DNA of 64,000 bases from Rhizophagus irregularis. Its lineage: Eukaryota. Shown here piece after piece: positions 5,465 to 56,783 of the stretch. Location of the stretch: NCBI RefSeq assembly GCF_026210795.1, contig NC_089431.1:4526001-4590000 (forward strand), given 5' to 3'. Position numbers and translations under genes: made by a program. Below the pieces are notes generated by a model, which worked only from the letters and a program-made list of their open reading frames with translations, searched no databases and was not told the origin of the DNA. Positions within the stretch are counted from its first letter, which is position 1. Each line of letters begins with the position of its first letter.

Positions 5465-5573
5465 TATGGTTGTGGTAAAAACTAGAAAGAATAAAGTTAT
5501 TGCAGATCGTATCTGTAGCCTGCTGGTGCTGGAGCACACCTTTTATTATGTGACAGTTGTGCGACTAGGCGAT

Positions 5574-6018
5574 GCACGTCTGAAATGTGTGTCAGGTTGA
5601 CGGCGCAGTGTGGCGCAGTAATTCAAAAAAAATCTAAGTTAAAGATTTTCTTTTTAATGTAATGCTTTCAAATTTACATATTAGATGTATTTTCATCTGT
5701 TTTACAAAATTCACTTATAAACGGAAGGAGGTTTTGGACGTAGATTTTGACTTTAGTATATAACAACTGATTTTATCGACTTTGCCGATCATTTCCAAAA
5801 TTGGATTTGTCAAAAAAACGGTTTTTGTTAAATAACTCGAAAATGGCCTTCTAAACCGCCCGTATATACTCTAAGTAAATTTGTAGAGCGGACGAAAATA
5901 CATCTAGTACAGTAATTTAAAGGTTTTATTTTAAATAAAAAAAATTGCAATTTAATTTTTTTTGGAAAAATCGCTGCGCCACACTGCGCCGTCAACCTGA
6001 CACACATTTCAGATGTGC
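5574..6018. mobile_element. Mutator-like MITE, 445 bp
   Basis: About 45-bp TIRs (GCACRTCTGAAATGTGTGTCAGGTTGACGGCGCAGTGTGGCGCAG); 9-bp TSD CTAGGCGAT at 5565-5573 and 6019-6027; empty site in the paralogous promoter near 12431. Confidence 0.9.
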
Positions 6019-9099: not shown

Positions 9100-9863
9100 T
9101 AAAAAATTTTTTACTTGGTTTTGCTATACAATAATTTGATAAATACTTCTTTTAAGCCAAAAATATAATAAATAAGATTCTGATAATATTGATAATATCC
9201 GTTATGGGATCTCACTTTGCGCAATAATTTCTGGAATTTTTTTTTATTGTAAAATTGAAAGTATATACTGTATGTTTTACAATTAGTTTGAATGTAAGGT
9301 TCCTATAATGTATACAATAAAATAAATGTGAATTAGTTATATGACTTGAAAAATATAAAAATAGACAATTTTATAAAAATTATTATAAAAAAAATTTTTT
9401 TAAACAATATTCATTAAGTTTTAAAATACTTTTAAAATAATCATAGCTATTTTGACTATATAAATTTTCTATTTTACATTTTGTTTTATTAAAACATACT
9501 AACTTACTAATAATACATACTAAAATTACTATGCATGTGAGAAATGGTTTTTTGTTAGTGAAATGGATTTTTTTTGCGTCTACTTTATGTTGAATAATTT
9601 AAGTTTCGCAAATGTAGATTTTTTACTCAACTTATTATTTATAGTTTATCAGGTGATTTTTGGTATTACAAACACAATTTTGGGCCACGGAAATTATGAA
9701 AATCTTTCGGATTTAGCATTTAACGCAAAGTAACCAAATCCACCGATATGTATCAGTAAATCAATTCACTTCTTTAATGAATAAAAATAATTCTTGAACT
9801 ACATAATGGTACAAAAAATTAATAATTTGTACACAATTTCCTGACAAATTATTTTAATCAACT

Positions 9864-10118
9864 ATCATTTATGAATCTGAAAAACTTCATAAACTTCTAT
9901 AGAAATTTCATTTCCTATCCCTCTGATCTGATTTTCATAAGAAAATTTTTTACAACTACTAGTTTCGTTATTAAAAGAAATTTCGCAAAATAACCTTCAT
10001 ACATTATAACCAAATGATGGTCCGTAATAGTTCCAATAATTTATAGCAAATTTTTCATCCTCTACTCGACTAATAAGACAATTTTCAATATTATCTTTAT
10101 TCACAAAAGAAAAAATAA
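9864..10118 (-). pseudogene. 3' fragment of a TLDc-domain gene
   Basis: FIFSFVNKDNIENCLISRVEDEKFAINYWNYYGPSFG ... EVYEVFQIHK, with no upstream part. Confidence 0.75.
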
Positions 10119-10810
10119 AGATGGTTCCTTCTTTTCTAACTTGAACTGTTCGGTGTTCCTATGAAAAAGTTGATCATGTTTTATATTCCCATGTTATTCC
10201 ATAAAATATCTTATTCAAACTTCTAATCATAGAAATAATTCGATCAAGATTTTTTTTAATACTAATAAAAATAATTTCATATTGTGATACACCTAATACG
10301 CTACCACTTTCAGTAAATCTAAATTATAATTGATCCTTTATTGTCGCAACAGATTTGGAAGTATCAATCATAATTATATATTTAACATAAACTGAACGTT
10401 ACAAATAATAAATGTAAATAGAGAAAATAAACAGCGGTAATAAAAACTTAGGTTTTACGAATAACTGAAAGTGATATTGTTTCATAATTTCATTAATCAT
10501 AAAATGAGAATGTTGCAATTCTACAACTGGTAATAAATTAACTCTTAAGGTTAGTTAGTGTCCATATAATATTATAGTAATTCTATTGTTACCGACTAGT
10601 AACTTCAATTTTATTTCAAAGAAAAAAAATTCCATGATTATTAATATTTTATTTTTATAAAATTTTTCGCTTACATGTTCAGTAAACTGATCTTACACGA
10701 ATTCTTTTCCACTTTAATAAATAAATGAATAATTTATAAAACCATATAGATATAGTGGCACTAAATCTTCAATAATTTGTACACAATTTTCTGACAAATT
10801 ATTTAATCTA

Positions 10811-12339
10811 TTATTCATTATGAATCTGAAAAACTTCATATTCTTCTATGGAAAATTTATCTGATGTCACTCTGATCTGTTTTTCATAAGATTTCTTTTG
10901 ACAAAAGCTATTAGTATTTTTATTAAAATAAGCTCCACTATCAAACCCTCCACATATTGTAAGGTCTCTACCACCAAATGTTGGTCCGTGATATTGCCAA
11001 TAAACTACAGCATGTTTCTCATCCTTTACTCGACTAATAAGACAATTTTCAATATTATCTTTGTTCGCAAAAGAGAAAATAAAGCTATCCTTGGTAGTAC
11101 CATAATTATACAATAAACTTGTATTATTCTTCCATTCAATCGGATTATATCCTCCAAGAATTTCATTACTTTCTTTCACTTTGATAATCGCTACAGTACA
11201 AGATTTATTATCACAGATTTCATGAAACTTTTGAGCTGTAAATCCATCACGGGATCCACGAAGAATTAACTTGAATTTATATGAATTCTTTAATTCATCT
11301 GTAATCTCTAATTTATCAATCCATTTTGAGATTAATTCAGCATGTTGAATTGTAATAATATTTGAATCTATACCCTTAGTATTTAATAATTTAGTAATCT
11401 GTGATTCTGATTTTTTCCTTGGTACATAATCATGATCCAAAAAATATTTGAATAAATTATCTTGTAGATCTTCGGGAATAACCTTTTTATACGGATACAC
11501 CTTATTCAGGAATTCTCTAGAAGTAAATTCAGTAAATTTAATTAAAGGAATAAATTGTTGTAAAGTATTTTTTAAAGCATTAAAATCATCATTTGAATAA
11601 CTTGAAGGATCTGACGAAAATCCAGTATTTTTTGCAATACCCCATTCAAGTACGTGTTCCCAAATTTGAACTTCACTCATTTTAACTTTATCATGCTGAA
11701 TAAGAGAGATTAAAGCTTTTTCTGGAATCGAAGTAAAATCAGATGAATTGAAAATTTTTTCTGGTTGATTAGAAATTAACTCAGTGCAAAACTTTTGAAG
11801 ATCCAAGAAAGAGTTGTTTTCGAAGCTCGTTTGATATATCAAGTTAAAATTTTGTTCCATCCAGTTCGCTTTGTTTTTAATTAAAAATGATTGTAAATGA
11901 GGAATTAATTCCTGAATACTTAATTCGTTAGCAGCAAGCAAGATTTTAATAATATCTAAGATATCATATTCTGCTAAAGAAATTCTTCCACCATAAAAAT
12001 ATCTAAAATAAAATAATACATTAATAAAAAAAAAAATTTTTTATTAATTTATTTAATAACAATTAGTTTAATTATTTCTTACCTTAAAATTATTTGAAAA
12101 ATTTCAGGTAAAATATTTGGTAATTTAATATGTGCTATGGTTCCATCATTTTTCTTTTCATTAGTTGATAAAATTCTTCTCAAATAAGGAGAACGATAAT
12201 TTAATATAACCATATGAGCACGAAAAATTTTTACGTAAGGATCTTTACCAACTTCAATTGTAATATCATAATATTCTTCGTCGTCTAAAATTTCAAGTAA
12301 ATTTTGTGATAATTTTGGTAAAAATTTATCATCAGCCAT
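10811..12339 (-). CDS. BTB/POZ-BACK-TLDc protein, copy 3; exons 12339-12083 and 12002-10811
   Basis: Same two-exon structure and motifs as paralogs. Confidence 0.9.
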
Positions 12340-12659
12340 TATTATGGTTGTGGTAAAAACTAGAAAGAATAAAGTTGTTGCAGATCATATCTGTAGCCTG
12401 ACCTTTTATTAAAGGCATGAGGTGTGACATTAGGCGATCCAGTGACATACACAGCACAAGTGACGTAAGTGACGTAATATTAAAATTCTTTAGTCACGTG
12501 ATTAAATTAATTAAACTTGAAAAGGAAATTAAGCATAAATACGATAATAATATATAATTTAGATAGTAATAATTTTTTATCAATTGTTATTTTAAAGATT
12601 CATGTTACAATTTTAACTACCGAGTACCGAATCAGCTTAAGTAATCTATATGGAAGTTA

Positions 12660-27466: not shown

Positions 27467-27904
27467 AGTAGTATGAAAACCCCAATTCTGGCTCACTCCC
27501 ACCATATAATCTAAAATACTACCACTTTATATAATCTAATTACCACCATCATATAACTTAATTACCATCATATAATCCACCTACCACTTTTACTATAATT
27601 TAACTACCACTTTATATAATCTAGTTACCACCATCATATAATTTTAATTACCACCATATAATCCACCTACCACTTTTCATATAATCTAGTTACCATCATA
27701 TAGTTTTATTACCACCATACAACTCTATTACCACCATACAATCTGAAAAAATTAACCGAACAAGAAATAGGATTTCAAAGCCAACGGAGCCAAAAAAGGT
27801 AAGGAATATTAACCCATCCAGGAAACCAGCCATGGAGTCAATAGAGCGGAATAGCAAGGCAAGCAATTACCCTTATACCGAGAAAAAATGTAATTGAATA
27901 AAAG
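27467..27904 (+). repeat. Left TIR of the Polinton, with an internal TACCA(C)-TATAA repeat array
   Basis: Reverse complement of 39333-39770, no mismatch seen. Confidence 0.95.
27882..27904 (+). promoter_or_regulatory. Shared upstream motif GAAAAAATGTAATTGAATAAAAG (before ORF 27929)
   Basis: Identical copies at 38661-38683 (-) and 39333-39355 (-); 20/23 match at 29466-29488 (+); each is 23-40 nt before an ATG. Confidence 0.75.
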
Positions 27905-27928
27905 ATTCACATATAAAAGACTTACAAG

Positions 27929-28600
27929 ATGTCACAATACAGACCATTACTAAGACGTATATTAGGCCAGTTTGAACTCAACATAGAAGAATGGGTAAAG
28001 GAAATAATGTGGTATTTAGATATAGCATATTTAAAAGCTTTAGATTCCGAATTTAGCAAAGAAAGTATGTTAGTATCTGGATTAGAAGAGCTAGTAGAAA
28101 TATTTGATGAGATGTTAGAAGGTGATGATATATGGATACATCCATCACTTTTATCACGAATAAGATATTCTATTCTACCAGATGAGATGGCAATATATGA
28201 AAGATTTTCAGATATCATTAAGAACTTCTCAGAGGATAAAGAATTAGCATATGCATTATTAGACTTAGTAGAAATATTATCAAAAAAGAAACCTACAACA
28301 TTCAACATTATAGATTACAATATACAAAGAATATTCACGAATCCTAATGATGAATATAGAAATGAATTCAGCATCTACCATATTAAAGGAGATGAAGATA
28401 TGGACGAAGACACAGATGAAGACATAGATGAAGTAGAGCAGAATGAATTCAATGAATACTATCAGAATCTTGCACCGACCACCGAGAGTCAGCTGGATAG
28501 ACTAAAAAATGAGTTGGCTATAACTCTATGTGACGAATGTCTTATGCCAACAAGAAGTCAGGAATGCGATTGCTGGATTTTACAAATAGAGGGTTTTTAG
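27929..28600 (+). CDS. Polinton hypothetical protein, acidic, with a C-terminal Cys cluster (223 aa)
   Basis: ATG ORF behind the shared motif; D/E-rich tract; CDEC-x8-CDC. Confidence 0.75.
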   Translation: MSQYRPLLRRILGQFELNIEEWVKEIMWYLDIAYLKALDSEFSKESMLVSGLEELVEIFDEMLEGDDIWIHPSLLSRIRYSILPDEMAIYERFSDIIKNFSEDKELAYALLDLVEILSKKKPTTFNIIDYNIQRIFTNPNDEYRNEFSIYHIKGDEDMDEDTDEDIDEVEQNEFNEYYQNLAPTTESQLDRLKNELAITLCDECLMPTRSQECDCWILQIEGF

Positions 28601-28621
28601 TTCTCAGTGAAACCATTTTTT

Positions 28622-29413
28622 TTACCTCTCACAATCTGGAATAGGTGCATCACAAATAAAATCCCCAAAATCATTCGGATTAGAAAACAACTTCTGTAAG
28701 AACTTATAAACCATATCAGCATCCAATTCAGTCTTAGTGCCAAATATATTAACCTTACCAGATTTAGGCCAGATATGTACCCGAATCTTTGAAGTAAAGA
28801 TTATAGCAATTTTAGAATGAATATCACCTGCATCATTCTTAATATACTTTATCGGAAAGGGAAGAATCTCACGAATACCATCTATAGATTCTAAAGCATA
28901 TGCTAAGGTAGAAAGATTAATAAACTTATCACCCCCAATATTAATCACAAATTTATAATTGCGCAGGAGAGCCTTATTTCCACCCACAAGTTCTACAGAA
29001 GAAAATTCAGGTAGGGAACATTCAGAAAGGTAACGTAAGAAGATAGCAACAGGATCAAAAGACCCGAAAACTTGTATACTACCAGATTTAGGAAAATAAC
29101 GAATAGTATGTACAGTATCAGCTAAGATGATAACAAACTCAATGCATGCATTAAAAGTGCTACCATCCCCTGTACGTCGCCGTCTATTTAATGGATTGTC
29201 AGGTGTACTTCGTCTGCATCGCCTCTCACCTTTTGGTTTAGACAAGTACTGTTCATAACCCTCAAAAGCTTTATGAATAAAGTTGCTATTAATGGCAATA
29301 ACATCCTTAGTAGGTTCAAGCTTATGACCAAGCACGGTGTAATCAAGCCCTTCAACATTGATCTTAAATTCAGTAACAGTAAGAGATGGAGTAAGTTCAC
29401 TAAAAGTAAGCAT
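28622..29413 (-). CDS. TATA-binding-protein-fold protein, resembling the asfarvirus B263R-type TBP-like factor (263 aa)
   Basis: Two internal repeats IRYFPKSGSIQVFG and VHIWPKSGKVNIFG match the TBP IF.SGK.V.TG signature; basic insert followed by GDGSTFN; recognised by eye. Confidence 0.75.
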   Translation of the reverse strand: MLTFSELTPSLTVTEFKINVEGLDYTVLGHKLEPTKDVIAINSNFIHKAFEGYEQYLSKPKGERRCRRSTPDNPLNRRRRTGDGSTFNACIEFVIILADTVHTIRYFPKSGSIQVFGSFDPVAIFLRYLSECSLPEFSSVELVGGNKALLRNYKFVINIGGDKFINLSTLAYALESIDGIREILPFPIKYIKNDAGDIHSKIAIIFTSKIRVHIWPKSGKVNIFGTKTELDADMVYKFLQKLFSNPNDFGDFICDAPIPDCER

Positions 29414-29465
29414 GTCTGGTTTTTTCTATTGATAGAAAAGAAATGTTCAAATTATTTTATCCTAA

Positions 29466-29488
29466 GAAAAAATCTAATTAAATAAAAC
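29466..29488 (+). promoter_or_regulatory. Variant of the shared motif (GAAAAAATCTAATTAAATAAAAC) before the F-box ORF
   Basis: 20/23 identity to the TIR-end motif, 30 nt before ATG 29518. Confidence 0.65.
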
Positions 29489-29517
29489 TTCTTCATCAAT
29501 ATCTCATATGAGATACC

Positions 29518-30030
29518 ATGACAAACAATAGCTTACCTTTCGAACTTTTAGAAAAGATATTCAAAACTTCATATGAAGGTACTTACTCCCGTTGGCATTA
29601 TCTTTGCAATTATGCATTAGTGTGTCGAAAATGGGCTGTAGTAGCAAACTCTCTCCTATGGGGTGAAACAGACCTTTATAACCTCTATAATATTAAGGAG
29701 TTCCAAATGTACAAACATCTCACAAAACCAGGAACAGTATGTGGAAAATATATCAGAAAGCTTAATATGGATGGAGTAAAATTATGGCCCATTTGTATTG
29801 TAAAAATGCTACAAGCTTGTCCCAATATCCAGGAACTTAGCATAATAGATTATCAATACTATGGTGGAAAAGGTGACGTTAGAGATTTGCTAAGTGAAAT
29901 CCTGCATATATTACCAAACCTTCAAAAGCTAGATATCAGATATAGTCGATATTTTAAAAATAGAAATGCCATTGAAAAACTCATAGAAACCCGTAAAGAC
30001 CTAGAAATCAGAGTAACATGGCAAATGTAA
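29518..30030 (+). CDS. F-box / leucine-rich-repeat protein (170 aa)
   Basis: LPFELLEKIF...YALVCRKWAVVANSLLW F-box; CPNIQELSI and LPNLQKLDI LRR-like units. Confidence 0.85.
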   Translation: MTNNSLPFELLEKIFKTSYEGTYSRWHYLCNYALVCRKWAVVANSLLWGETDLYNLYNIKEFQMYKHLTKPGTVCGKYIRKLNMDGVKLWPICIVKMLQACPNIQELSIIDYQYYGGKGDVRDLLSEILHILPNLQKLDIRYSRYFKNRNAIEKLIETRKDLEIRVTWQM

Positions 30031-30047
30031 TATTTGTAAAGGCTAAT

Positions 30048-30148
30048 CACTACCGAAAAAATTTGGGCACTGCCCTGTTACTGCCCGTCACTGCCGAAAA
30101 AATTTGGGCACTGCCCTGTCACTGCCCGCCACTGCCCATCATTGCCGC
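30048..30148. repeat. GC-rich tandem repeat (about 42-bp unit x2 plus CACTGCCC subrepeats)
   Basis: CACTRCCGAAAAA(A)TTTGGGCACTGCCCTGTYACTGCCCGY repeated in the gap between convergent genes. Confidence 0.8.
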
Positions 30149-30237
30149 AGAAGTTTGGGAAACACATGGATTTTTCCTAGCAAGATGACGCTTTAACTTA
30201 GAGGGAAAGTCAAAACTTGCTCCACATAGATGACAGG

Positions 30238-33200
30238 TTAATCTTCCTCGAGAGTGTGAATTTTTTTTAAGTCGATAGTATCCATCTGCAAGGAAGTCAC
30301 GTTAGTTTTCCGTTTATGTAGAGAAATTGGAATGGTAATTTTTTTACGTGATGATAGAGGGATGGTCAGTTGCCGATTTTGGAAATCTAGAATGACATTA
30401 GCACGATCAATCCAAGGTACACCTAGCAATAAAAAGTCCTTATCACTCTTAACAACCATGAAGTCATCTTCAATTTTTTTAGAGTTCTCCCCATCATATA
30501 CAAGAATACCAAGACCATATACTGTCCCAATAGTATCAGATTTTGTTGCAACACCACTAAGATCAGGAGCATTACTTCTATCAACGTCAAGATTTAGGCG
30601 CTTTACAATATTGTTAGATATCAGAGAACTATCAGAACCAGTATCAAAAATTGTCGTAGGAATAACTAAAGATTTTTCACTCTCAGGTGCGACTACTTTG
30701 GTCTTAATAGTGACTACATCACTAGCAGACTTGCGGTTAACAATTCCAATACCCGCTATAGAAGACCATAAGTCATTATTACATATAACATCATCATTTT
30801 TACGGATTAAATTTGCAGCCATACTATTAGTTACAACCGAAATCATAGGATGAAGGATAGATGTGAAAAGGTCCTTAACATTATCCCAAACTTTTTCACG
30901 TGTTTTTATCGAGGGTTCTCCTTTAAGCTGACTGAGTACTGGTTCTTTATAATTAATGAATTCAGCATTCAGAGCATTGTAAGCAGATATAACAGTCTCT
31001 TTTGGTACAGCATTAACGAAGGATTGAACCAGAAGCTTTAAGAGTTGTATAAAAACCTCAAAGATAATACGCTGCCTTTCAAGTAGTGATTTTTTCTTAT
31101 CAGTAGGCTTTTTATCTACACGTTTCCTTTCTGTAGGCTTTTTTTTTAATCCATAGCAGGCATGTCCAGAGTCTGAATCACTATCAGAGGAGTCAGAGGA
31201 GTCAGAGGCGTCAGAAGAGTTAGAGGAATCAGAGGAGTCATGTGTAAGGTTGCTTGCCGAAACCTAGGGGTTTAGGCAAGATGGCGTTTCGCCGAAAAGC
31301 GAAATTCTGCCGAAACTATATTAAAGTTATATTAAAAAACTGGCGAAACTTTGGAGAAAGACGAAACTGCTGAAACTTATTATAAATGCCGAAACTGCCG
31401 AAACTCTGCCGAAACTATAATAAATCTATAGTAAAATTTTGATGAAACTAATCGTAGGATTTTGAAGAGGTTTAGACAAGCAACCTTAGTCATGTGCATA
31501 ATTTGTTTTCCTCTTTCCCTTCTTAGATTTTGGACAGGAACTCTTAGTATGACCAGATTTTCCACAACTTGAGCATTTCTTTGATTTCTTTGGTTTGCGT
31601 GTACCTGAACTTATACCAAATACCTGATTACCACGGTAAATATGGTCAGATGGTAAATTTTTATTAAGTTCTGTATCAATAAATATTTCAAGATCACTAA
31701 GGGTTACTTTACTTATATCGATATCTCTTGGAAGACCTAATTTATATGCTAAAGCAAGTAATCTCTGAAATGATGTATCATTTTGAGGACTTGAAAATGG
31801 ACTAGAAGATGGTACTGGTACTGCAGATGATTTAGCCGTAGTCATAGGAATTTTAGAATTTATAAGATTCTCAATATCCGCTAAAGTTGGACCCTGGTAT
31901 GTAACTATAGGAGTAGGTGGCATATCTGTCCTGTATTTCTCAACTTCTTCCAATTTATTCAGAATAGATGCAACTGAATTTTCTAAACCAATACGTCGTG
32001 CATCCAACTTATTTTCACTGGAAAGACCATTTAAGAACTGTTGCCGTACTAATTCATTCTGATTTACCTCTGGAAGAGTTGGATATGCAAGTCTAACCAT
32101 TCTTCGTAATTTAGAATAGAATCGGCTTACAGTATCACTACCCTGAACAATAGCATTAAATGCAAGCTTAGACTTTTCAGATGTTATAGTAGGGAAGTAA
32201 TGCTTAAAACGATATATTAATTGTCCAATACGTATTCCAGGAGCCACAATTGTACCTCCATTATTAGCATTAGGATTATTAACAGCTATATCAGTAGGAC
32301 GACCCTCGACTATTGACCAATCTTCATCCCATACAGTATGATCAGGTATAAAATTAGCACCAGTAATAGTATTATCTGCAGCTGCTTGTCCATGTAATAC
32401 ACCAGCCCCTCCACGAAATTGATTCGCCGCTACAGCCTGTATAGCGGCATTATTCAAAGCATTAAAAGCAGCAAGAGTGGCCACACCAGTATTATCCAGA
32501 AGATTTACACATTCCCAATTTTTTCCTTTGATATGTGTTTCATACCAATCTCTAGCATCATCTTCAAGTAAAGTTTCAAAGATCCCATGAATCCTAACAC
32601 GAGTCCTAGCATTAGCAGCAGGATCAAGTCCAGCAGACTCACACCATTGCCTGAATTCTTGAAGCCAAAGTTCTGGATCTTCACCAGATGCTCCTCTAAA
32701 TTTTTTAGGTGCATATCCTGCCATTATAGGTTGTTGTATTACCGGAGGGTTATTTTGTAATGCTAGAATCTGTTGATTCAAATTATTGACCTGATTTTGC
32801 AAATTTTGACCATGATTGCGACAGTTTAAAAATTGCCCTCTCCATGCTCGAGCTTGCTGAATGATACCATTAGCCCGCCTTCTACTTCGCTCTGTTTCAG
32901 TATTATAGCGCTGTAATAATCTATGAGCATTTCTTCTACTCTCATCACGTTCTCTCTGGACATTAGCTAGTTGGATTTGACTGTTAGCAAATTGAGCCTG
33001 GATGTTAGCCAATTGGATCTGAGTATTTTGTGCAAGGCCTTCCCAATGTTGGCGATGACGCACTTCATTTGCATATGCATCCTCATAGGTACGTCTTGTT
33101 CTTAGTATAGTAGCACGTGTATTATTAAGTTCTCGTCTAAGATATTCTTCACGGTTATGTGCATCATCTAACAAACCTTCAAGTCTATCCTCCATATTAT

Positions 33201-33699
33201 CTTGATCTTCTATAATATTTCGCAACTCATTAGCATATCGGATAATGGCATCAAGACTATCATTTGCAGTGTTAAATAAATGATTTATATGAGGGTGTGC
33301 TGCTATAGTTGTACGATCAAGGTGAATACGAATACCAGCTACACTATTTGCTATAGTTGTCCGATTATTTAAGATTTCTGTAATAGGGTCAGGAGGAATT
33401 GCTGCCATGTTTTTCCGTTGTCTATTAGCAAGTTCTTTTATTCGATCTTTGAGTTGAATATTTAGAGTATCAACTTCAATCAGCTGACGTTCTAATGCTT
33501 GAAGCCCTTCCTCCTTTAGTGATGCCGTTTCTAATGCTTTCTTAAGCTTTGCACGCAACTCAGCATTTTTTTGCCTAAGTTCTTCTATCTCAGATTCATG
33601 ACCCTCGATTACACCATACAGGTATTTTATATATTGCTCTTGTGATTGCAATGTATGTGCAAGCTTTGTAATCTGTGTCTTTAACGATGTATCTTCCAT
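30238..33699 (-). CDS. Polinton-encoded Gag-aspartyl protease polyprotein (about 1069 aa restored), interrupted by the MITE at 31245-31488
   Basis: Coiled-coil N-terminus; Ty3-type capsid motifs (PKKFRGASGEDPELWLQEF..LEDDARDWY; IVQGSDTVSRFYSKL..QFLNGL); CCHC knuckle CSSCGKSGHTKSSC; protease IFDTGSDSSLIS / LLLGVPW; the linker translates without stops after MITE removal. Confidence 0.88.
31245..31488. mobile_element. hAT-like MITE, 244 bp
   Basis: 21-bp TIRs TAAGGTTGCTTG(C/T)C(G/T)AAACCT; 8-bp TSD GTCATGTG (31237-31244, 31489-31496); internal GCCGAAACT repeats. Confidence 0.9.
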
Positions 33700-34745
33700 T
33701 GCCAGTTCCACAGATTTTTATAGACCCTACATTTAATAAACAAATCGAACAAAATTATATCCTTCAACAAATCTATTACCATCCATGTGGATATTATCGT
33801 ACTCCTGAAAAACTTTGGGCTAAAGTGCAAGCTGAAGGCCATGATTTTAATATATCTGATATTACAGAGTGGTTGCATAAACAGGCTATATGGCAAATAC
33901 ACTCACCTATACCCAAGTATGTTCCACAGGTTTCTTTTAATAAGATTACTCGACCAAATATGTATCATCAAGCAGATATCTTATATATGCCCTATGATAC
34001 TGTAGATAGAAAGCTGTATAAATACTGTCTGAATATTGTAGATGTTGCTAGCCGATATAAAGCTTCAGTACCTCTAGAAGATCGCAGCTCTGCACGTGTT
34101 GCTAAGGCATTTAAAAAGATTTATGGTAAAGCAGACTGCCCGCTTATTTGGCCAAGAGTTTTACAAGTAGATGGGGGATCAGAATTTAAGGATGAAGTTA
34201 TCCGATTAATGGATGAAAAAGGTGTGCGTATTCGGGTGGGTACTACTCATAAGAGTCAGGCTATTGTTGAACGGTATAATCGAACTTTAGCAGAGAGACT
34301 TTTCAAAATACAGGATGCAAAGGAACTCCTTACAGAAGGTGTGAATACTGCCTGGGTTAAGAACCTTTCTGATATTGTGAATGAGCTAAATAATTCTAAT
34401 ACTCGTCTACTAGGTATGTCTCCAGTTGAGGCAATCCAGAAAGATCAAGTGTATGCACTACCTTCAAAAATTCGGAAGGATAGACCTGTAGGTGCAGAAG
34501 AAATACGTTTACCAGCTGGTTCTCTTGTGAGATACTTACTTGATAACTCAGATTACCAAGGTAGGAGACGTGCAACTGATCCAATATGGTCTACTAAAGT
34601 TTATACAATTGAATCTTCCACAGTTGTTGATGGGCAGCCGGTTATATATAGGTTATCTGATGGACCTAAAAAAATATTTACTCGAGAAGAATTATTAGTT
34701 GTGCCATCTGATACTATGCTGCCTCCTACTCATATATTATATTAA
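33687..34745 (+). CDS. Polinton-type retroviral-like (rve) integrase
   Basis: HQADIL / IVDVASRY / LQVDGGSEF / AIVERYNRTL DDE core; IYYHP N-terminus and WSTKVYTI C-terminus typical of Maverick integrases. Confidence 0.92.
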   Translation: MYLPLPVPQIFIDPTFNKQIEQNYILQQIYYHPCGYYRTPEKLWAKVQAEGHDFNISDITEWLHKQAIWQIHSPIPKYVPQVSFNKITRPNMYHQADILYMPYDTVDRKLYKYCLNIVDVASRYKASVPLEDRSSARVAKAFKKIYGKADCPLIWPRVLQVDGGSEFKDEVIRLMDEKGVRIRVGTTHKSQAIVERYNRTLAERLFKIQDAKELLTEGVNTAWVKNLSDIVNELNNSNTRLLGMSPVEAIQKDQVYALPSKIRKDRPVGAEEIRLPAGSLVRYLLDNSDYQGRRRATDPIWSTKVYTIESSTVVDGQPVIYRLSDGPKKIFTREELLVVPSDTMLPPTHILY

Positions 34746-37700
34746 TTTTCAAGTTGTGGTATCCTATAATCTCCATGTGCATACATTGTGATATTATCTT
34801 GTGCAATCCATTTTTTATCATCCATAGGGGATAATCCTACCTTCGACATTTCTATAACATTTATGGCATGTCTATCAGATCGGATTGCTCTAAAGGTGAC
34901 TGTATCATTATGTTTAGGATCAAAGAGTGCCTTATTATACCGCTCATGGTGGAACTCTTTTTTAACTACCTTTGAGGGGACACCTTTAGCCTTACGGATA
35001 CCATGTTTTGGATTGGTGGTCTCATCCCCTACCTTGAGAATGGAATACATTTTGGGACGGAGGCCAATAAATTCTGCTATAACTGCTCCATTACATTCAT
35101 CCTTAAATTTCCCTGGGATTTTCATATTTATGTCAGTCTTATCACCTAATGCTTTTCGTACAGGATGATCTTTAGGATAATCACTGAAGTCAAATTGGTC
35201 TGCCATATCTATGAGGTCTGCATTAATATCCTCAGTTTGGATTTGTACAAGAAGTGAGTCTGTGTCTGTATAACATAACTGGATTTTTTCACCATATCGT
35301 ACTTTAAGAGTATCATAGTAGAATTGATACATACAGAGCTTCGAGAGGTCAAGCACACTCATACCCACATATGTTGGACGGTTAAGCATTACCTCCACTT
35401 TTCGTCGGTGGATTGCAACAAAATTTTCTGAGAATATTTTACGACCCTTGAATGCAGGATCTGAGGTAAGCTTTTTATATTTCTTGGGATGGGTTTGGGG
35501 TTGTACTACTGAGACACGTACACGTTTCCTGAGATTTTCCATAGTTTTACCAAATACACTATTATTCATGAGTTTATAGAAGTCCTTCTCAAAATCATTC
35601 TTAGCCTTAGCACGTTCGGCGGTGTTAAATTCTATATATGGTTTCATCCATGGAGCCTGCTCGAATTTTATAGCTTCATAGACCTTCTTGATTACTAAGC
35701 CCTGGCTAACATAATACTGGAGATTTCTATAATGAACTACATATTCATCCTTATCAAATAGGTTAGGGATGAGCTTATCTGTGGGTGTGTATCGTTGTCC
35801 TGAGCGTGCTATTATTTCCTGCTGCTTTTTACTAAGCCATTCCTTCTTAACCTTCATTCGTTCTGGTGCAAGGGGGTAATCTGTGTGTTGTGAATGGAGG
35901 GCTTGAGGGTACTCCAGTTTAACTTTAAGGATATATCCTTCAGAAGAATCGTCTGGTATTTCATTACTTTCTATTTGCCTTTGAATGTTAGATAACTCGT
36001 TTTCCTCCTTTATCCAGTGGAAGTTACCTGTAGGTAAGTATTGCAACATGGCCCATCCATATAGGTTATTTGCGTCTAAGTATAGAATAGATGACTTGGG
36101 CTTATCTGCGGTCCATTTACCTTCTCCCATACCTGGATTATTTGCACGAGCATATCGTTTACTTACCATAGAGATTCCACCACGTAATCCTTGTTCTACC
36201 ATCATGTACATGTCCTGGTCAGTTATAAGATCCAATCTTTGCCCTGTCATTAAGAATAGTGCATCCCATGCGAAGCCTGGTGTTGAATAATACCAGAGAG
36301 GATCTAACCCATATTTTTTCAAGGCCATTTCTCGGAAATTCTGAAATATATCGGCTAGTAGGAGGACGTCAGTTTTGAGATAAATGTCATGATAATCTTG
36401 CATTGTTTTACATCCTGCTTTTTCCCATACATACTGTGCATATTCATATTCTTTATCACTAATGTGGGTTTCATTAAGTTTGCTATAAAATGCTCCTTTA
36501 GGTGGTAAACTAGTTTTCTCAAACTTTTTCCAGTCATCCATGTATTCATACGGGTAGACACCTTTTTTAAGATAAATCTCGAGTAATTCAGGTGGTATTT
36601 GACTTCGTGTTATCTTAAAGTTTTCGGGATGTGCAAAGCATCTACCTGCATCAATTCGCCATAAGTGTTGTGGATTACTACATTCTTGTGCTCTACATTT
36701 TTCTGCACCTAGATTGGATGCTAATTTGTCGAGACTTGATTTCATGAATTGTAAGCTGTCTATAAATCGGAGGGAACCTAACTTGAATGCCATATACTTT
36801 TCCATGTTATAAGGGATAGGATCAATATCATCCTCACATTCCATTGCACCAATTCCTTGCATAATTATGTGTCCATCATATCCTGATAAATTGTGAAAGA
36901 TTACTGGGATATGCATTTCACGAGGTTTTATGGATAAGTCAAGATTACATCCTCTATGTGCTGCACCTCGATACCTTCCTGTAATATGGCAGTGGTCTCT
37001 TACTTTATTTCCATTTAAGGGGTTACGACATATCCAGCAGTTTATTGCATTATCATAACTTGCTTGCTCTTGGGTTGTTAACGGCATCATTTCCATTGGG
37101 TTTCTGAATTCATTACGGATTGCTTCAGCCTCATTTAGCATTTCGATTACAAATTTTTGTGCTGCATTTTCTCCTGTAAATATCTTCTGTGATTCACTTA
37201 CACCATCATATCTTACCTTAATATACGAGTATGAGCAGGGGATTTGCTCTTGTACTTTCTTGGTTTTCTTATCTTTGTCTTCATCTGTGGGTGGTATGTC
37301 CATTACTAGGGCTTCAAAGTCTGCAACAAAGTAATATGGGACTTGCATGCGGCGTTTCCAGTTCTTGAATTCATATATATCATTTCCTTTCTTTACTGAT
37401 GGCATTCGGTCTGCTTGTGGGGTTTTCTTTAATCCTCGACATATTGCTACATGTTTGTCATGGATTTCTTGTTGATGTGTGAAGTGGGAGATACACCATC
37501 GGCAGACAAATGTTGCATGTCCATCTTTTGTACGTTTATTTACTAAACGGCTCATATTCTTAATCCAGCAATAGTGCTGCTTTTCCCCGTTACTGATAAG
37601 TACTAAATCTATTATTTTACGGCCCTCTGCATCATCCCTATCGGTAACATATATTGGGCATAGGCGGTGGTCACGCCATTCACAAATGCAGAGGGCAATA

Positions 37701-38638
37701 GTTGGGTTCTGTCGCTCAAATCTTCTTAGAATTACCTCATCAGCTTGTACTGGAAATTCGATACCTTCAAAGTTTAACTCATTTACATACTCCTTATACT
37801 TGGAAATTCTTTCTGCGTTCTTTTCTACTGGATGTAATGCTGCTAGGATTGCCCACTGGAAGCATTTGTCATCATCATTAGCTGGATTTACTACTCCCTT
37901 TTTCGTGGCAAGATCTTTTGGGAGTGGTATATGTCCTGCTCCTGTGGGTGGTTGAAATTGCGAGATTTCTATAAATATTTTTTCTACACGATAAAATTCC
38001 CAACCTGATCCGTAATTTACATAGTCTTCTACTTTCTGCATGATTCTTGCTAATGCAAAGTTAAATGTACCATTAATATCTGTTGATGGTAGGATTGGCA
38101 TATTGCGAGTTTTAAATGGTATGTTATATCTGTAGATATACTCTACTCCATCATCTTCACTAAAGTTACCATCTCCGAATAATCCCTCAAGGTAAGAATC
38201 TAAACGTCTTATTGTGGCAAATATTCCAATTCTTACTTTTATTGATCCCAATCGATTTCTTTCATCCTGAAGAATATTCTGGATTGTTTGACTGTGTGCT
38301 GTAAGAAATGAAGCATAGTCATGCTCTCCAGGTGTTCCTATAGCAATATCAGCCGTAAAGTTTGAGTCTGTTAACTCCTTTCCTATACGTACCTGATCAC
38401 GATGTTCAAAGACTACCTCATAATGTGGGTCTGGATCAATTTGCATCATGCGGGTTATCTCTTCATTGGTTACCGCCGCTTGTGCTTCACAGATTTGGCG
38501 GATCTCATCCTCATATTCCTGCAATTTTGCATTTGAGCGGGGATATGGGATGGACTTGACAGGTACCTGCTTGAGTTCAGCTAGAACTGATCGGGTGACT
38601 TGTCTGTGTTGGGCACTTCTTGCTTGATGTGTTGACAT
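34742..38638 (-). CDS. Protein-primed family B DNA polymerase (1298 aa)
   Basis: Exo I ADFEA, Exo II FHNLSGYD, Exo III YLKTDV; Pol motifs YLDANNLYG, KLMNNSVFGK, YTDTDS, RPKMY; endonuclease VII-like insert CWIC..VRDHCHITG..H.GCN. Confidence 0.97.
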   Translation of the reverse strand: MSTHQARSAQHRQVTRSVLAELKQVPVKSIPYPRSNAKLQEYEDEIRQICEAQAAVTNEEITRMMQIDPDPHYEVVFEHRDQVRIGKELTDSNFTADIAIGTPGEHDYASFLTAHSQTIQNILQDERNRLGSIKVRIGIFATIRRLDSYLEGLFGDGNFSEDDGVEYIYRYNIPFKTRNMPILPSTDINGTFNFALARIMQKVEDYVNYGSGWEFYRVEKIFIEISQFQPPTGAGHIPLPKDLATKKGVVNPANDDDKCFQWAILAALHPVEKNAERISKYKEYVNELNFEGIEFPVQADEVILRRFERQNPTIALCICEWRDHRLCPIYVTDRDDAEGRKIIDLVLISNGEKQHYCWIKNMSRLVNKRTKDGHATFVCRWCISHFTHQQEIHDKHVAICRGLKKTPQADRMPSVKKGNDIYEFKNWKRRMQVPYYFVADFEALVMDIPPTDEDKDKKTKKVQEQIPCSYSYIKVRYDGVSESQKIFTGENAAQKFVIEMLNEAEAIRNEFRNPMEMMPLTTQEQASYDNAINCWICRNPLNGNKVRDHCHITGRYRGAAHRGCNLDLSIKPREMHIPVIFHNLSGYDGHIIMQGIGAMECEDDIDPIPYNMEKYMAFKLGSLRFIDSLQFMKSSLDKLASNLGAEKCRAQECSNPQHLWRIDAGRCFAHPENFKITRSQIPPELLEIYLKKGVYPYEYMDDWKKFEKTSLPPKGAFYSKLNETHISDKEYEYAQYVWEKAGCKTMQDYHDIYLKTDVLLLADIFQNFREMALKKYGLDPLWYYSTPGFAWDALFLMTGQRLDLITDQDMYMMVEQGLRGGISMVSKRYARANNPGMGEGKWTADKPKSSILYLDANNLYGWAMLQYLPTGNFHWIKEENELSNIQRQIESNEIPDDSSEGYILKVKLEYPQALHSQHTDYPLAPERMKVKKEWLSKKQQEIIARSGQRYTPTDKLIPNLFDKDEYVVHYRNLQYYVSQGLVIKKVYEAIKFEQAPWMKPYIEFNTAERAKAKNDFEKDFYKLMNNSVFGKTMENLRKRVRVSVVQPQTHPKKYKKLTSDPAFKGRKIFSENFVAIHRRKVEVMLNRPTYVGMSVLDLSKLCMYQFYYDTLKVRYGEKIQLCYTDTDSLLVQIQTEDINADLIDMADQFDFSDYPKDHPVRKALGDKTDINMKIPGKFKDECNGAVIAEFIGLRPKMYSILKVGDETTNPKHGIRKAKGVPSKVVKKEFHHERYNKALFDPKHNDTVTFRAIRSDRHAINVIEMSKVGLSPMDDKKWIAQDNITMYAHGDYRIPQLEN

Positions 38639-38660
38639 CTTGTAAACTTTTTATACTCCT

Positions 38661-38683
38661 CTTTTATTCAATTACATTTTTTC
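38661..38683 (-). promoter_or_regulatory. Shared motif upstream of polB
   Basis: Exact 23-bp copy outside the TIRs, 23 nt before the polB ATG. Confidence 0.75.
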
Positions 38684-38846
38684 TGAAAATAAAATTAATT
38701 GTTCGCCTACCCTATGAGGGTAAAAAAAGAGGGAGACAGATTAGTACTGTCTTCCTAAACTATTCCTCACCATCTGAGTCATCGGGATTGTCATCCGAGT
38801 CACTGAGCACATCCTCGTCCTGATGTATACTCTATCCTTAAGTAAC

Positions 38847-39293
38847 TTATAGTTGTAAGCTACAACGGCGAATAGCTTCTTTTACCATAATATGCTCTAC
38901 TGCAGCATTTGTTCTCTCTTTACAAGCCTTTTGATATGCCTTCCATTCAAGTTCACGGAGGTCACGATTTCTATTACCCTCCTCCTCTGATCGACCAAGA
39001 GCATCATTTGCTTTTTCCTTCTTTTCTACTGCTTTGTCGTATGCCTCCTCGGCTTCTTTATGCCGCTTCCAGAGTATTCGTTCAGCTTCGGCTCTCCAGA
39101 TTGGGCTGACTTCTAGAAGATGTGTCCCGAAATTTCTACTTGGAATGTATTCCAGGATATGGCCCACAAGTTCGGGGATTACTGATACTGCGTACGGGGT
39201 TTGGTGGCTTTTTAGAATCTCTCTATTGATAGCCATAAGATCAGAGACTGTGCAGCCAAAGATTGTTGCTAACTTTTCTGCGGTATATACCAT
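38847..39293 (-). CDS. F-box-like protein with helical tail (148 aa, possibly truncated)
   Basis: SVIPELVGHILEYI...LLEVSPIWRAEAERILW; an in-frame acidic tail (QDEDVLSDSDDNPDDSDGEE) lies beyond stops at about 38760-38830. Confidence 0.65.
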   Translation of the reverse strand: MVYTAEKLATIFGCTVSDLMAINREILKSHQTPYAVSVIPELVGHILEYIPSRNFGTHLLEVSPIWRAEAERILWKRHKEAEEAYDKAVEKKEKANDALGRSEEEGNRNRDLRELEWKAYQKACKERTNAAVEHIMVKEAIRRCSLQL

Positions 39294-39332
39294 GTTATGT
39301 ACTATTTATCTGTATAGTTACTTGGTACCTAC

Positions 39333-39770
39333 CTTTTATTCAATTACATTTTTTCTCGGTATAAGGGTAATTGCTTGCCTTGCTATTCCGCTCTATTGAC
39401 TCCATGGCTGGTTTCCTGGATGGGTTAATATTCCTTACCTTTTTTGGCTCCGTTGGCTTTGAAATCCTATTTCTTGTTCGGTTAATTTTTTCAGATTGTA
39501 TGGTGGTAATAGAGTTGTATGGTGGTAATAAAACTATATGATGGTAACTAGATTATATGAAAAGTGGTAGGTGGATTATATGGTGGTAATTAAAATTATA
39601 TGATGGTGGTAACTAGATTATATAAAGTGGTAGTTAAATTATAGTAAAAGTGGTAGGTGGATTATATGATGGTAATTAAGTTATATGATGGTGGTAATTA
39701 GATTATATAAAGTGGTAGTATTTTAGATTATATGGTGGGAGTGAGCCAGAATTGGGGTTTTCATACTACT
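39333..39770 (-). repeat. Right TIR of the Polinton
   Basis: Reverse complement of 27467-27904. Confidence 0.95.
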
Positions 39771-44084: not shown

Positions 44085-44847
44085 ACAGTAGTAAAAATGA
44101 TTCGATAAACTGGATCATGTGATCATTAACCAATAAAATTAAAGTAACGTGATGTGGTAAATCTTAATTTTGGCCAGAATTATAAAAATCTTAATTCCGG
44201 CCGAAGTTATATATCACTTATATATTCAATTAAAAATATTTTATATTCATTTTCATGACCTCTATGACTTAAAACTAAGATAAAAAATTAAAATATAGTG
44301 TATATTGATTTTATTAGCATGAATTTTTTTAAAAAAATTCAGTATAATAGATTTTCAATATATCAAAATTTTTTCGCTATACCGGATATCCTGATAAACT
44401 GGATATTTTTAGTGGAACCAGTAGATCCGGTTTATCGAATTTCACTGTGACTACGTTGATTGTATGAATCGTAATAATTAGATATGGGTCAGCCGAACCT
44501 AATAGGGCATTTTAAAAAGGCGACATTTATGTCAAACCTATAGAAAGGGAGATAGGATAGCGTTTTACATCTAAAATGTGAATAACATAACAAAATGAAC
44601 TTAATAACATTTGGAAAATTGTCTTCTCTTTTTAACAATCATAAAAATCATGTAATTCCGGAATGTTAAATTTTATTTGAAGATCTTAAAAAATCAAAAG
44701 GAATATTTTATTTTCACACCTGGTCGTATTCATAATCACAACAACCACCTCTTGTTAATAAATAAAATAATAATTTTTTGAACTATAAAATTGTACAAAC
44801 CCTAATAACTTACACACAACTTCCTGGCAAATTATTTAATCTATTAT

Positions 44848-46368
44848 TTATTCATGTATCTGAAAAACTTCATATTCTTCTATAGAAAATTTATCTCCTG
44901 TTTCTCTGATCTGTTTTTCATAAGATTCCTTTTGACAATAACTAAGAGCATTTTCATTAAAAGAAATATCACCTTGACACCCTCCATATATTATAAGGTC
45001 ATTAATACCAAATGATGGTCCGTAATAGTGCCAATAATTTATAGCATGTTTTACATTTCCTACTCGACTAATAAGACAGTTTTCAATATTATTTTTATCC
45101 ACAAAAGAGAAAATAAAACTATCCTTTGTAGTACCATAACTACCCCTCAAACTATAATTATTTTTCCATTCAATCGGATTATACCCTCCAAGAATTTCAT
45201 TGCTGTCTACTACTTTAATAATCGTTACAGTACGAGATTGATTATCACAAATTTCATGAAACCTTTGAGTTGTAAATCCATCACGAGAACCACGAAGAAT
45301 TAATTTAAATTTATATGAATTTTTTAATTCATCTGTAATCTTTAATTTATCAATCCATTTCGAGATTAATTCAGCATGTTGAATTGTAATAATATTTGAA
45401 TCAATACCCTTAGTATTTAATTCTTTAATAATCTGTGGTTCTGATTTTTTCCTTGGTACATAATCATGATCCAAAAAATATTTGACTAAATTTTCACACA
45501 TCTCATCAGGAATAATCTTTTTATACGGATATACCTCATTTAGGAATTCTCTAGAAGTAAATTCAGTAAATTTAATTAAAGGAATAAAATGTTGTAAAGC
45601 ATTTTTTAAAACATTAAAATCATCATTTGAATAACTTGAAGGATCTGACGAAAGTCCAGGATTTTTTGCAATACCCCATTTAAGTACATACTCCCAAACT
45701 TGAACTTCCCTCATTTTAACTTTATCATGCTGAATAAGAGAGATTAAAGCTTTTTCTGGAATCGAAGTAAAATTAGATGAATTGAAAATTTTTTCTGGTT
45801 GTTTAGAAATTAACTCTGTGCAAAACTTTTGAAGATCCAAAAAAGAATTATTTTCGAAGCTCGTTTGATATATCAAGTTAAAATTTTGTTCCATCCAACT
45901 TGTTTTGTTTTTAATTAAAAATGATTGTAAATGAGGGATTAGTTCTCGAATACTTAGTTCATTAGCAGCAACCAAGATTTTAATAATATCTAAGATATCA
46001 TATTCTATTAAATAAATTCTTCCACCATAAATATACCTAAATAAAATAATACGTTAATAAAAAAAATTTTTTATTGATTTATTAATAACAATTAGTTTAA
46101 TTCTTTTTTACCTTAAAATTATTTGGAAAATTTCAGGTAAGATATTCGGCAATTTAATATGTGCTACAGTTCCATCATTTTTCCTTTTATTAGTTGATAA
46201 AATTCTTCTCAAATAAGGAGAACGATAATTTAATATAACCATATGAGCACGAAAAATTTTTACGTGAGGGTCTTTACCAACTTCAATTGTAATATCATAA
46301 TATTCTTCGTCGTCTAAAATTTCAAGGAAATTTTGAGATAATTTTGGTAAAAATTCATTATCTGCCAT
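44848..46368 (-). CDS. BTB/POZ-BACK-TLDc protein, copy 4; exons 46368-46112 and 46036-44848
   Basis: Same structure as paralogs. Confidence 0.9.
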
Positions 46369-49034
46369 TATATTTGTCAAAAATGAAGAGGAAAATAAAG
46401 AGAGCACAAGAATATTGCCAATCCTAATTTGTGAAATGGGTTCAACCTTTATATTGCAGATCTGGAAGTTGTAACACAATATTAATTGATTGGATCGGTT
46501 AATTTGCAATTTTGCATGTTTAAAACCCGGTTAATAACTACTGACGTCAAAGTTAATTTCACCGATCATGATAAATGTCATATTTTTGTTATAGTACTTT
46601 CCATACTTGTTATTAAAGAAATAATATTTGGTCAACAATAATTGGTGGAGCGATTGAAAAAATTTGTTGTTATGAAATTTTCAGTTTAATAAATTAAAAT
46701 AAACTTAAAATTACAGTGGGTAAATTAATAAATTTATATAAATGTATTGTTATTAAAAGAAAAAAAAATATCAAGAAAAAAATAAATAAATAATAATTCA
46801 CAAACTCATTCATAAAACATATAATTTGTAGTTAAAATAAATGTTTTGAATGATTAAAGGGATAAAAGCTATAATTTTTATTTCATTTTAAACATTAAAG
46901 ATTTTTTGATTATTACCCGAAGGCCGAAGCAAAGCGGAGGAATATCTATAATTTTAGTTTGTCTCCTAAAAACGTCTTCCTCAAATCACTATTGTTTCCT
47001 TTTTTGAATAATTTCTTCATCGTGTTATTTCCTTTTTGAAACCTTGAAAAAATCAACGAATGATAATAATTTTTTTTAAAAAAAAATTTTAAACAGTTTC
47101 CATTTCAATTAGTCTTTTTTCTTCTGCTATTCGTTCTTTTATTCTTTACAGTTTTTTATATCAATTTGTTTTTTACAATTAATACAATAAAGGCAAATTG
47201 TTGATTGAACGTAGTCATGTGCATACTGCGACCTTCAATTTGATAATGGACTTTCCATATTTTAATTATATTTTACAGGAATTGAAACTTTATTGGCATG
47301 TTATCAATAATATTAATAAGTTATAAATCATATATAGCACATTTACTATGGTTATGACGTGATTTTACGCTTTTTACGTGTCTTTAAATATTAAACAATA
47401 TGTATAATTAACATTATTTTATAACTACATTTTTATAGATGAAAAAACATTGTTATGCTTGGCGTATAAGTTTTTTTAAATGATTTAAAAATAAACTTTA
47501 TTTTAAAATTAAATATATATCTTATACATTGCCCTGATCCTGATTTACATTTGAAAAAAAAGAGTTTTTTCTTTGTTGTTATAACTAAGTAAATTAATAA
47601 TAAATCAATCGACTATAAAATAATAAAATACAATTAGTTAATTATACTTTTAATCTTCTAAATATTTAATGAATAGAAATTTTGTCAAATTTACTATATT
47701 ATTTTACATACATGTTGAAAATCGCTTTTAATTAATCAAATTATTGACATTCTCAATATCAATTTTTGTGAAAATAGATGGGTTCCTGGGTATTTGGTTC
47801 TCTTAAACAACACTTACACCATCTACAGATACAACCACCATCACACCAACACTGACAAGCACATCTATAACCCATGTAATAACATCCACAACCATTAACG
47901 ACAAGAGCATTTGATTTGACATATATTTCGACACCTTTATTGTAAGATGATGTGCAAAAAGAGCTTTGAATGGGTGATTCTTGAAATGCAATTGAGGACA
48001 AAAAATACGAAGATGATTACAGAAAGATACTGTGAAGATACATTTTGGCTTTGATTTCGAAAAGATTGTTAAATCTTACGTGACAGAATTGCATCTTCTT
48101 AGAGGAATATTTATTTATACTCGTATTATTGGTCAAACCCTGTATTATTAATTTTTCATCACCTATTAACTTTTATTATGTGTTGTTTTATGATCTTCAG
48201 TTGAAAGTAAAAAAGTAAGATTTTTCTTTTGAACACGTCCTTATCCTTGATTTTTTTCTTTGTTCTATAGCTTTGTTTAATCTAGCTTACAGTATTTACT
48301 GTAAGAATCTCGCTACATGATCGGCAATTTAAGCGTGTGGGTTTGACTAAACCAAAAAAATATAAGATTGAACCTCATTGTCGACCTAATTGGGAATTTA
48401 TTAGATCAAATTGACGCGAAGTTGAGTTTTGATAATTCACACACACCATCAGGTTATGGGAATTTCATCCAAACTAGAATAAACAAATAATTATTAATAC
48501 AAACGCATTAGACTTTTAAAGATAATTTACGCCAATTACAATATTTTCGAGATTTTCCCATAAAACGAATAATTTTGATTTTGGATTGCAGGATTCAAGT
48601 ATAGTTACAAAATTACAAAAGTTCCCTTCATATCTACATGTATGTATCCATTTCTAACTAAGGAAAATAAAAAAGGGGGAGTCAACAGATTAATTTACGA
48701 TTTTACGATTTTATTTCTCCATGTTTTTATTACTTCATAAAATAAATCGACTATTTAAAATGGATTTCATTGTGGGAAATTCCAAAATCCTAATATTATT
48801 TTTTATTATTACATAATTCTGGCAAAAAATCTTGGCGTTGAACGCTCTTTGAATACTAAAAATAATTGTTATTGTTCCAGTTCAGATGAAACTTAATCAA
48901 GATCGATGATAAGTCACTTGAATAAATCCTAATAAAGCCACTCCAACCCAAATTTTATCGTTTAGCATAACATTCTTCACAAACTAAGAATTTTTATATT
49001 CTTTTTTATTCTATATCTCTTGATAATAATAATA

Positions 49035-53637: not shown

Positions 53638-54013
53638 TAAAATGGATTGAAAAAAAAAATAAATAATACTATAGTGTGACATAAATATAATAAATTATTA
53701 TTTGGCGTATTAATTCTCATTTGAAGATAAATACTTGTAAGTATTAGTTATTCCAAATTTGTTAAATTAATTGTTTACGTAATTTGAAAATAAACAAACG
53801 TATATAGAAAATTATAAAGGTCAAGTTGTAGCGATTAAATTGAGTAGAGCATTAATAAAATATTGATAATAATGTAATATAAATTCATAATTTTCATGTA
53901 ATATTTTTGGTATAATTTCTATCAATAAAATGGAATACTAGGTGAAATATAATGTCAGTAAAATGTCCTATCAGACAAAAAATCAGCAACCGTTAACCGA
54001 ATTACAATACCGG

Positions 54014-54629: not shown

Positions 54630-54668
54630 ACTATCCCCCGCATAAAAATTTAATGCCCACATTAAATT

Positions 54669-56748: not shown

Positions 56749-56783
56749 TTTATTTTTGAAAAGTAACTCTTTTACCCATCTAT

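Follow-up and report, generated by a model that had tools for sequence, protein, structure and literature searches.

A 64,000-nucleotide stretch of the Rhizophagus irregularis genome (NC_089431.1, positions 4,526,001 to 4,590,000; hereafter the window) contains an integrated Polinton, one gene of which encodes a TATA-binding protein (TBP)-like factor. From its sequence similarity and shared inserts, this protein clearly belongs to the B263R family of African swine fever virus (ASFV) and its relatives, and comparison of sister loci indicates that the gene is a conserved core gene of the Rhizophagus Polinton. We propose, at a probability of roughly 0.55, that when an asfarvirus-like helper co-infects, the protein serves the Polinton as an initiation factor of its own, working on the helper's transcription machinery. 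The open reading frame (ORF) runs on the minus strand for 263 stop-free codons (Table 1), and an identical protein has already been recorded from R. irregularis. Both repeats that an earlier note had picked out from the letters of this DNA are present, YFPKSGSIQVFG at residues 106–117 and IWPKSGKVNIFG at residues 214–225, as is its GDGSTFN motif at residues 82–88, which lies C-terminal of a basic stretch (residues 59–81, K/R 10/23). The basic stretch exists as the note described it but not where the note put it: it is an insert within repeat 1 rather than an N-terminal tail, the predicted fold beginning at about residue 3.

The predicted structure comprises two α/β repeats that form a saddle with a continuous sheet, as in TBPs. 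The internal repeat scores weakly in profile alignment (hhalign probability 29%, E 6e-4, 32 columns), and Pfam returns no TBP match for the window protein, nor for ASFV-type B263R; the TBP fold suggested earlier is upheld by the predicted structure together with family profiles. The best viral structural match is the abalone B263R homolog, at a TM score of 0.76 that is partly circular because this homolog was included in the folding alignment. Structural alignments with cellular TBPs show 15–19% identity. Of what we take to be the canonical four Phe and two Asn, the protein retains F87 (matched by eye to the first Phe), F107, W215, and N152, while the fourth Phe is His and the first Asn was not seen. 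F87, F/Y107, W215, and N152, which presumably lie on the DNA face, are kept without exception in 23 element rows. D197 is acidic at the column of the Glu that we take to contact TFIIB in cellular TBPs (the stirrup) and is kept in 91%. The Pro-Gly that follows the first SG turn in viral B263R proteins is lost in the element proteins, column 116 being Pro in 85% of viral rows and Phe in 70% of element rows, and the helix linker is shorter in element rows.

A search profile built from 48 element-type proteins matched 544 representatives at E up to 0.001, one of which shares a cluster with the B263R homolog of the abalone asfa-like virus (E 1.2e-24). Locus L036 carries a 263-aa ORF among genes for the major capsid protein (MCP), the A32 ATPase, and PolB; its ORF lengths agree with ASFV gene names, part of which we assume, and its gene order is common to five further viral contigs and partly to one more. 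The window protein aligns with the 263-aa ORF at 30% identity over 256 positions (E 3e-29), a similarity that spans the full length. Sequence comparison with 12 archaeal, six eukaryote-type (one a plant TBP), and eight mimivirus-type TBPs gave a best E of 4.5, and the high conservation of eukaryotic and archaeal TBPs is not seen against the 18 cellular-type rows, among which the R. irregularis TBP is not represented. These comparisons bear out the earlier assignment to a B263R-like rather than a cellular lineage. Two signatures in the repeat 1 insert, N-x-N-F/Y-x-H (20/23 element rows) and G-D-G (23/23), recur in 49 and 62, respectively, of 82 viral rows selected by likeness to the element profile, and in none of the 26 mimivirus-type and cellular-type rows.

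Maximum-likelihood trees were computed from 137 rows and from a subset of 55 rows. In both, the element proteins form a clade (support 97–98) whose sisters are unplaced proteins (four in the 137-row tree, three in the 55-row tree; support 99), and the B263R-like group (111 rows with support 93, and 42 rows with support 99) is separate from mimivirus-type and cellular TBPs. The element gene branches deep in the B263R-like family, with no donor identified in the tree and poor resolution at the base of the group, and approximately unbiased (AU) tests of low power reject none of three alternative placements. The more economical view is that the gene passed from a virus to the element, since TBP-like genes are general in nucleocytoviruses.

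The gene's persistence across sister elements, which had also been anticipated, is supported by 32 metagenome loci: another gene of the Polinton adjoins it in 27, the protease is present in 12, Gag and integrase are reached in two, and the polymerase as well in one (L008). Across lineages the identity of the protein falls to 43%, and dN/dS lies between 0.10 and 0.47 in 19 of 20 pairs, which are not independent and include one pair without synonymous change. Of 66 homologues, the 11 that carry an organism name are all from R. irregularis, where several copies are truncated or deleted (166–237 aa). Such damaged copies, together with very low RNA depth, would suit a passenger gene acquired from an endogenous giant virus and without a role for the Polinton, but its position has been kept across the lineages along with the promoter motif described below, and purifying selection largely refutes this explanation, which we find scarcely credible.

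Upstream regions of the element share the motif WWTTGAAY, 30–52 nt before the start codon, which we defined by eye from element sequences and fixed before the viral contigs were read. Four ORFs of the window carry it upstream (orf223, the TBP-like gene, the polymerase, and orf148), and the F-box gene carries a variant that differs in one letter; it is absent upstream of Gag, protease, and integrase, and the remaining three copies in the Polinton lie inside ORFs. The motif occurs in 20 of 48 non-redundant upstream regions versus 1.4 in shuffles (the set leaves out the host-like flank ORFs of L026 and includes some wrong ORF starts or shadow frames), and on the reverse strand in 6 of the 48 over the full 70 nt. 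It precedes 0/18 host and long terminal repeat (LTR)-element ORFs and is found in 2.9% of random host 70-mers. Thirteen ORFs without a window homologue, most of them viewed when the motif was defined, carry it in five cases versus 0.22 expected. In the viral contigs, with early and late classes taken from ASFV, it precedes 4/7 TBP and 3/5 PolB genes, as opposed to 0/5 MCP and 0/5 VETF-large genes (p 0.005). The octamer AAAATTGA is reported to serve 44% of pacmanvirus genes, and two genes of that virus's transpoviron, as early promoter (PMC11788076). The ASFV early motif is thought to be bound by a virion-borne early factor, and B263R is described as being expressed early, with a proposed role at late promoters (PMC7458399, PMC7163114).

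In the mechanism we favor, the Polinton resides in the fungal genome, integrated through its own integrase ends and nearly silent in polyA RNA. Upon infection, the helper's virion-borne polymerase and early factor would switch on the motif-bearing early set, namely the TBP-like gene, the polymerase gene, and the two genes adjacent to the terminal inverted repeats (TIRs), after which the Polinton polymerase would copy the element. The Polinton TBP, early like ASFV B263R, would bind AT-rich post-replicative promoters, bring the helper's TFIIB and polymerase to the motif-less Gag-protease and integrase genes, and compete with the helper's own TBP. Having no recognizable jelly-roll capsid, the Polinton would travel as replicated linear DNA in helper particles, as a transpoviron does, or with the Gag-like protein, and then reintegrate.

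A number of observations weigh against this mechanism. Since the motif was defined by eye, its counts in the element, including the five of 13, are not blind, and the viral test alone is. The ASFV-type locus L036 has no motif before its own B263R or PolB gene, the window copies are two letters off the exact AAAATTGA, and no clear late promoter was found upstream of Gag and integrase. The fourth intercalating Phe column is His in 78% of element rows, as in mimivirus-type TBPs. The AU tests, with the low power mentioned, leave standing the element proteins grouped with cellular TBPs (p 0.20), as sister to all viral rows (p 0.62), or with the ASFV-type proteins (p 0.12). Element-type genes were not found in IMG/VR, and a published endogenous virus sequence contains no exact terminal 14-mer of the Polinton, a weak test. 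No infectious giant virus is named for Glomeromycota in the literature consulted. What the Polinton would gain from a second TBP is not obvious, as the helper already has its own. Finally, GT..AG-spliced polyA reads within the Polinton imply some nuclear host transcription.

These reads come from three raw-read runs of polyA RNA, in which the TBP-like gene has a depth of 0–1.4 per mate direction and the Polinton mostly stays below 2.5 outside an inserted miniature inverted-repeat transposable element (MITE), not above the host flank. The three GT..AG junctions, each with 3 reads, lie on the plus strand near the integrase. Near-silence of this kind fits both helper dependence and ordinary transposon silencing. 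The virus-derived TBP could instead work alongside host TFIIB and Pol II in fungal nuclei, as a private initiation factor for the Polinton's promoters that needs no helper, the upstream motif being its own binding site or a relic. The Polinton is chromosomal and its integration needs the nucleus, the spliced reads exist, the basic insert could be a nuclear signal, and D197 offers an acidic residue at the TFIIB-stirrup column. In addition, Mavericks are reported as expanded in Glomerales (PMC11952901), and 15–33 PolB-only viral regions, which may be Polintons, are listed per R. irregularis genome (PMC10640383). Nuclear use nevertheless appears unlikely to us: the motif marks early, not late, Asfuvirales-type genes and is absent before host and LTR-element ORFs, identity to cellular TBPs is low, and the gene's RNA depth does not exceed that of the host flank.

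The features of the DNA face bear on another alternative, in which the early-made protein is a decoy that binds helper TFIIB or late promoters unproductively, lowers helper yield, and thereby protects the mycelium. An early-type promoter, the absence of one intercalating Phe, the missing Pro-Gly, and the shortened helix linker would all suit such a role. On the other hand, three aromatic DNA-face positions and N152 are invariant, His occupies the fourth position in mimivirus-type TBPs too, and two element genes have no early motif and so apparently depend on a different activator, which makes a decoy decidedly unlikely.

The helper itself might be a cytoplasmic linear plasmid resembling the killer plasmids of yeast, with a polymerase like those of nucleocytoplasmic large DNA viruses (NCLDVs) and a related upstream motif. 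Killer-plasmid promoters are said to resemble the ASFV early motif, and the plasmids to encode a minimal NCLDV-related polymerase (PMC7458399); two R. irregularis strains are described as having capping-enzyme genes within short viral regions (PMC10640383). Yet no such plasmid turned up in any search of this analysis, the TBP is B263R-like, and this host has a documented asfarvirus-related genome, leaving a plasmid helper very improbable. The pGKL-type killer plasmids do resemble the Polinton as fungal linear elements with a protein-primed family B polymerase (pPolB) and NCLDV-related promoters and transcription proteins (PMC7458399). They differ in having their own polymerase for transcription and in not integrating. 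To our knowledge, they encode no TBP.

Returning to a helper of the asfarvirus kind, the window gene shares with B263R and other Asfuvirales factors the 263-aa length of the ASFV-type ORF, end-to-end similarity, the repeat 1 insert, and a C-terminal P-x-P-D tail, and several Asfuvirales-type homologues carry the same upstream motif. Unlike B263R, it resides in a 12-kb transposon without genes for a transcribing polymerase, TFIIB, or capping, its clade falls outside the named asfarviruses, and W215, H199, and F116 differ from the viral majority. The asfarvirus-related endogenous region in Rhizophagus that the earlier note had mentioned is in print: it is described for strain 4401 as spanning 1.55 Mb at a GC content of 36.6% and as lacking an MCP gene (PMC10640383). 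The virophage-like lifestyle proposed in the same note draws support from the shared early-promoter motif, but the Polinton would stand closer to a transpoviron than to a virophage because it has no recognizable jelly-roll capsid gene. The pacmanvirus lostcity transpoviron (pltv) is likewise linear, TIR-bounded, capsid-less, Asfuvirales-linked, and equipped with the helper's early motif (PMC11788076), which the Polinton has as a sequence motif two letters from the exact AAAATTGA. In contrast to this 7-kb episome with a helicase, the Polinton is 12.3 kb long and integrated, and encodes a pPolB, an integrase, and a general transcription factor. Virophages and helper-dependent polinton-like viruses (zamilon, Gezel-14T, and those of entomopoxviruses) are also small TIR-bounded DNAs with promoters common to a giant virus, but have jelly-roll capsids; zamilon is reported to encode no transcription factor and to raise its helper's TFIIB instead (PMC11464507). 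The Cymbomonas CHeCME elements are mobile and carry TBP genes sporadically (PMC10675990), whereas the TBP is core in the Polinton; they are Mirusvirus-related, with an HK97 capsid and no DNA polymerase.

We tentatively extend this to the possibility, which we hold to be rather doubtful, that fungal Polintons are a distinct class of integrated giant-virus parasites in which a retroelement Gag-protease replaces the jelly-roll module, early machinery from an asfarvirus-like virus infecting mycorrhizal fungi wakes the element, and the element's own TBP captures the viral polymerase. If so, their abundance and perfect TIRs would be the footprint of ongoing giant-virus infection of Glomeromycota, possibly an inherited defense. 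Capsid-less Polintons have so far been regarded as simple transposons; for this family, a core viral TBP together with early promoters of Asfuvirales type suggests dependence on a giant virus, and that a satellite could carry its own general transcription factor. In the open-access literature searched we found no TBP described in a Polinton, nor such a factor brought along by Polintons, virophages, or transpovirons, although Repbase notes and bioRxiv supplements may bear on this. B263R has reportedly been described as a TBP already, and the Rhizophagus Polinton family is said to have been known since 2006–2007. The promoter, the TBP clade, and induced element RNA provide handles for finding live double-stranded DNA viruses of arbuscular mycorrhizal fungi. 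The protein also offers a small B263R homologue, not derived from a pathogen, for structural and biochemical work on a family known mainly from prediction.

The element has the pPolB, rve integrase, long TIRs, AG...CT ends, and 6-bp target-site duplication (TSD) of a Polinton/Maverick (Table 1), and its GC content is 36.8% versus 25% in the host flanks. Polinton-1_GI (Maverick P_Gi1.1) from Glomus intraradices, that is, R. irregularis, is similar in length (11,954 bp versus 12,304 bp, the latter including a 252-bp insertion) and likewise lacks MCP, penton, ATPase, and cysteine protease (PMC4028283). This comparison is with its description rather than its sequence, and the excerpt of that description does not mention TBP, Gag, or retropepsin (PMC4028283). 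In the window element, Pfam and PHROGs scans recognized no jelly-roll MCP, penton, packaging ATPase, or cysteine protease; six of the eight ORFs are otherwise assigned, and orf223 and orf148 are short.

Table 1 Features of the Polinton in the window (window coordinates).
Feature	Position	Strand	Remarks
B263R-family viral TBP-like protein, 263 aa	28622..29413	-	Main subject; ORF, family profiles, predicted structure, tree
Early-promoter-like motif ATTTGAAC	29445..29452	-	39 nt upstream of the TBP-like start codon
Motif AATTGAAT	38666..38673	-	35 nt ahead of the polymerase start; context shared with the TIR copies
Whole Polinton, 12,304 bp	27467..39770	.	Ends AGTAGTA...TACTACT; 6-bp TSD TTGTAT
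Left TIR, 438 bp	27467..27904	+	Inner end with motif AATTGAAT (27892-27899) before orf223
Right TIR	39333..39770	-	438/438 identical to left; motif 39338-39345 before orf148
orf223, acidic, function not assigned	27929..28600	+	C-terminal CxxC...CxC; beside the TBP-like gene also in sister loci
F-box protein	29518..30030	+	Divergent from the TBP-like gene; Pfam F-box-like, E 1.5e-6
Retropepsin-type aspartic protease region	30238..31100	-	ATG ORF 30238-30846; open frame continues upstream to the Gag junction
MITE-like insertion, 252 bp	31237..31488	.	8-bp TSD; ends the Gag-like ORF early in this copy
Gag-like protein, 737 aa	31486..33699	-	Coiled coil, Ty3/gypsy-like capsid region, CCHC knuckle; Pfam and hhalign
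rve integrase, 352 aa	33687..34745	+	D-D-E motifs present; Pfam and motif check
Polinton-type family B DNA polymerase, 1298 aa	34742..38638	-	Exonuclease and polymerase motifs intact
orf148, no assigned family	38847..39293	-	ORF list, Pfam

Profile-library scans found no family for orf223, and in a more AT-rich sister lineage (L013-L021, L027) an ankyrin gene and several F-box-like genes take its place downstream of the TBP-like gene. The polymerase contains an inserted endonuclease VII-like zinc module at residues ~531–566. The Gag assignment draws on a weak Pfam match (E 0.02) and an hhalign probability of 76.6% to the Gag of the window's LTR element, 20 shuffles scoring below 1%. A retroelement-like Gag and a retropepsin appear to take the place of the jelly-roll module in the window (31100-33699, minus strand) and in L006:950-4062, L008:2249-5360, and L019:1-1353. 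Their junction falls within an A9-A10 tract that follows GLKK; the frame is kept in the window and shifted in L006, L008, and L019, which may reflect programmed slippage or homopolymer noise. At L006:930-955 and L008:2235-2255, the divergent start codons of integrase and Gag are separated by 10 bases, TAGTACTACT, a sequence that contains the terminal motif TACTACT and is possibly a trace of Gag module capture. Within the TIR (27467-27760, mirrored in the right TIR), about ten imperfect repeats of TACCACCATCATATAAT are candidate binding sites for a terminal protein, the integrase, or the TBP-like protein.

The Polinton interrupts the gag gene of a Ty3/gypsy element; the two LTRs of that element show no difference over 630 bp, indicating a recent insertion. 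That element (23604-44084), which has a 4-bp TSD, ACAG, and no segment for reverse transcriptase-RNase H, is one of two near-identical Ty3/gypsy copies, the other lying at 54013-64000. In the second copy, a P-loop domain similar to thymidylate or AAA_28 kinases stands at the start of the integrase ORF (54967-56748, minus strand), which is unusual for a Ty3/gypsy pol. The MITE at the end of the Gag-like gene is a high-copy, hAT-like element with ~12-bp TIRs, covered at ~20x the Polinton's depth in run X5. At least six dispersed copies of host BTB/BACK-TLDc genes occupy positions 1-12400 and 44800-53700.
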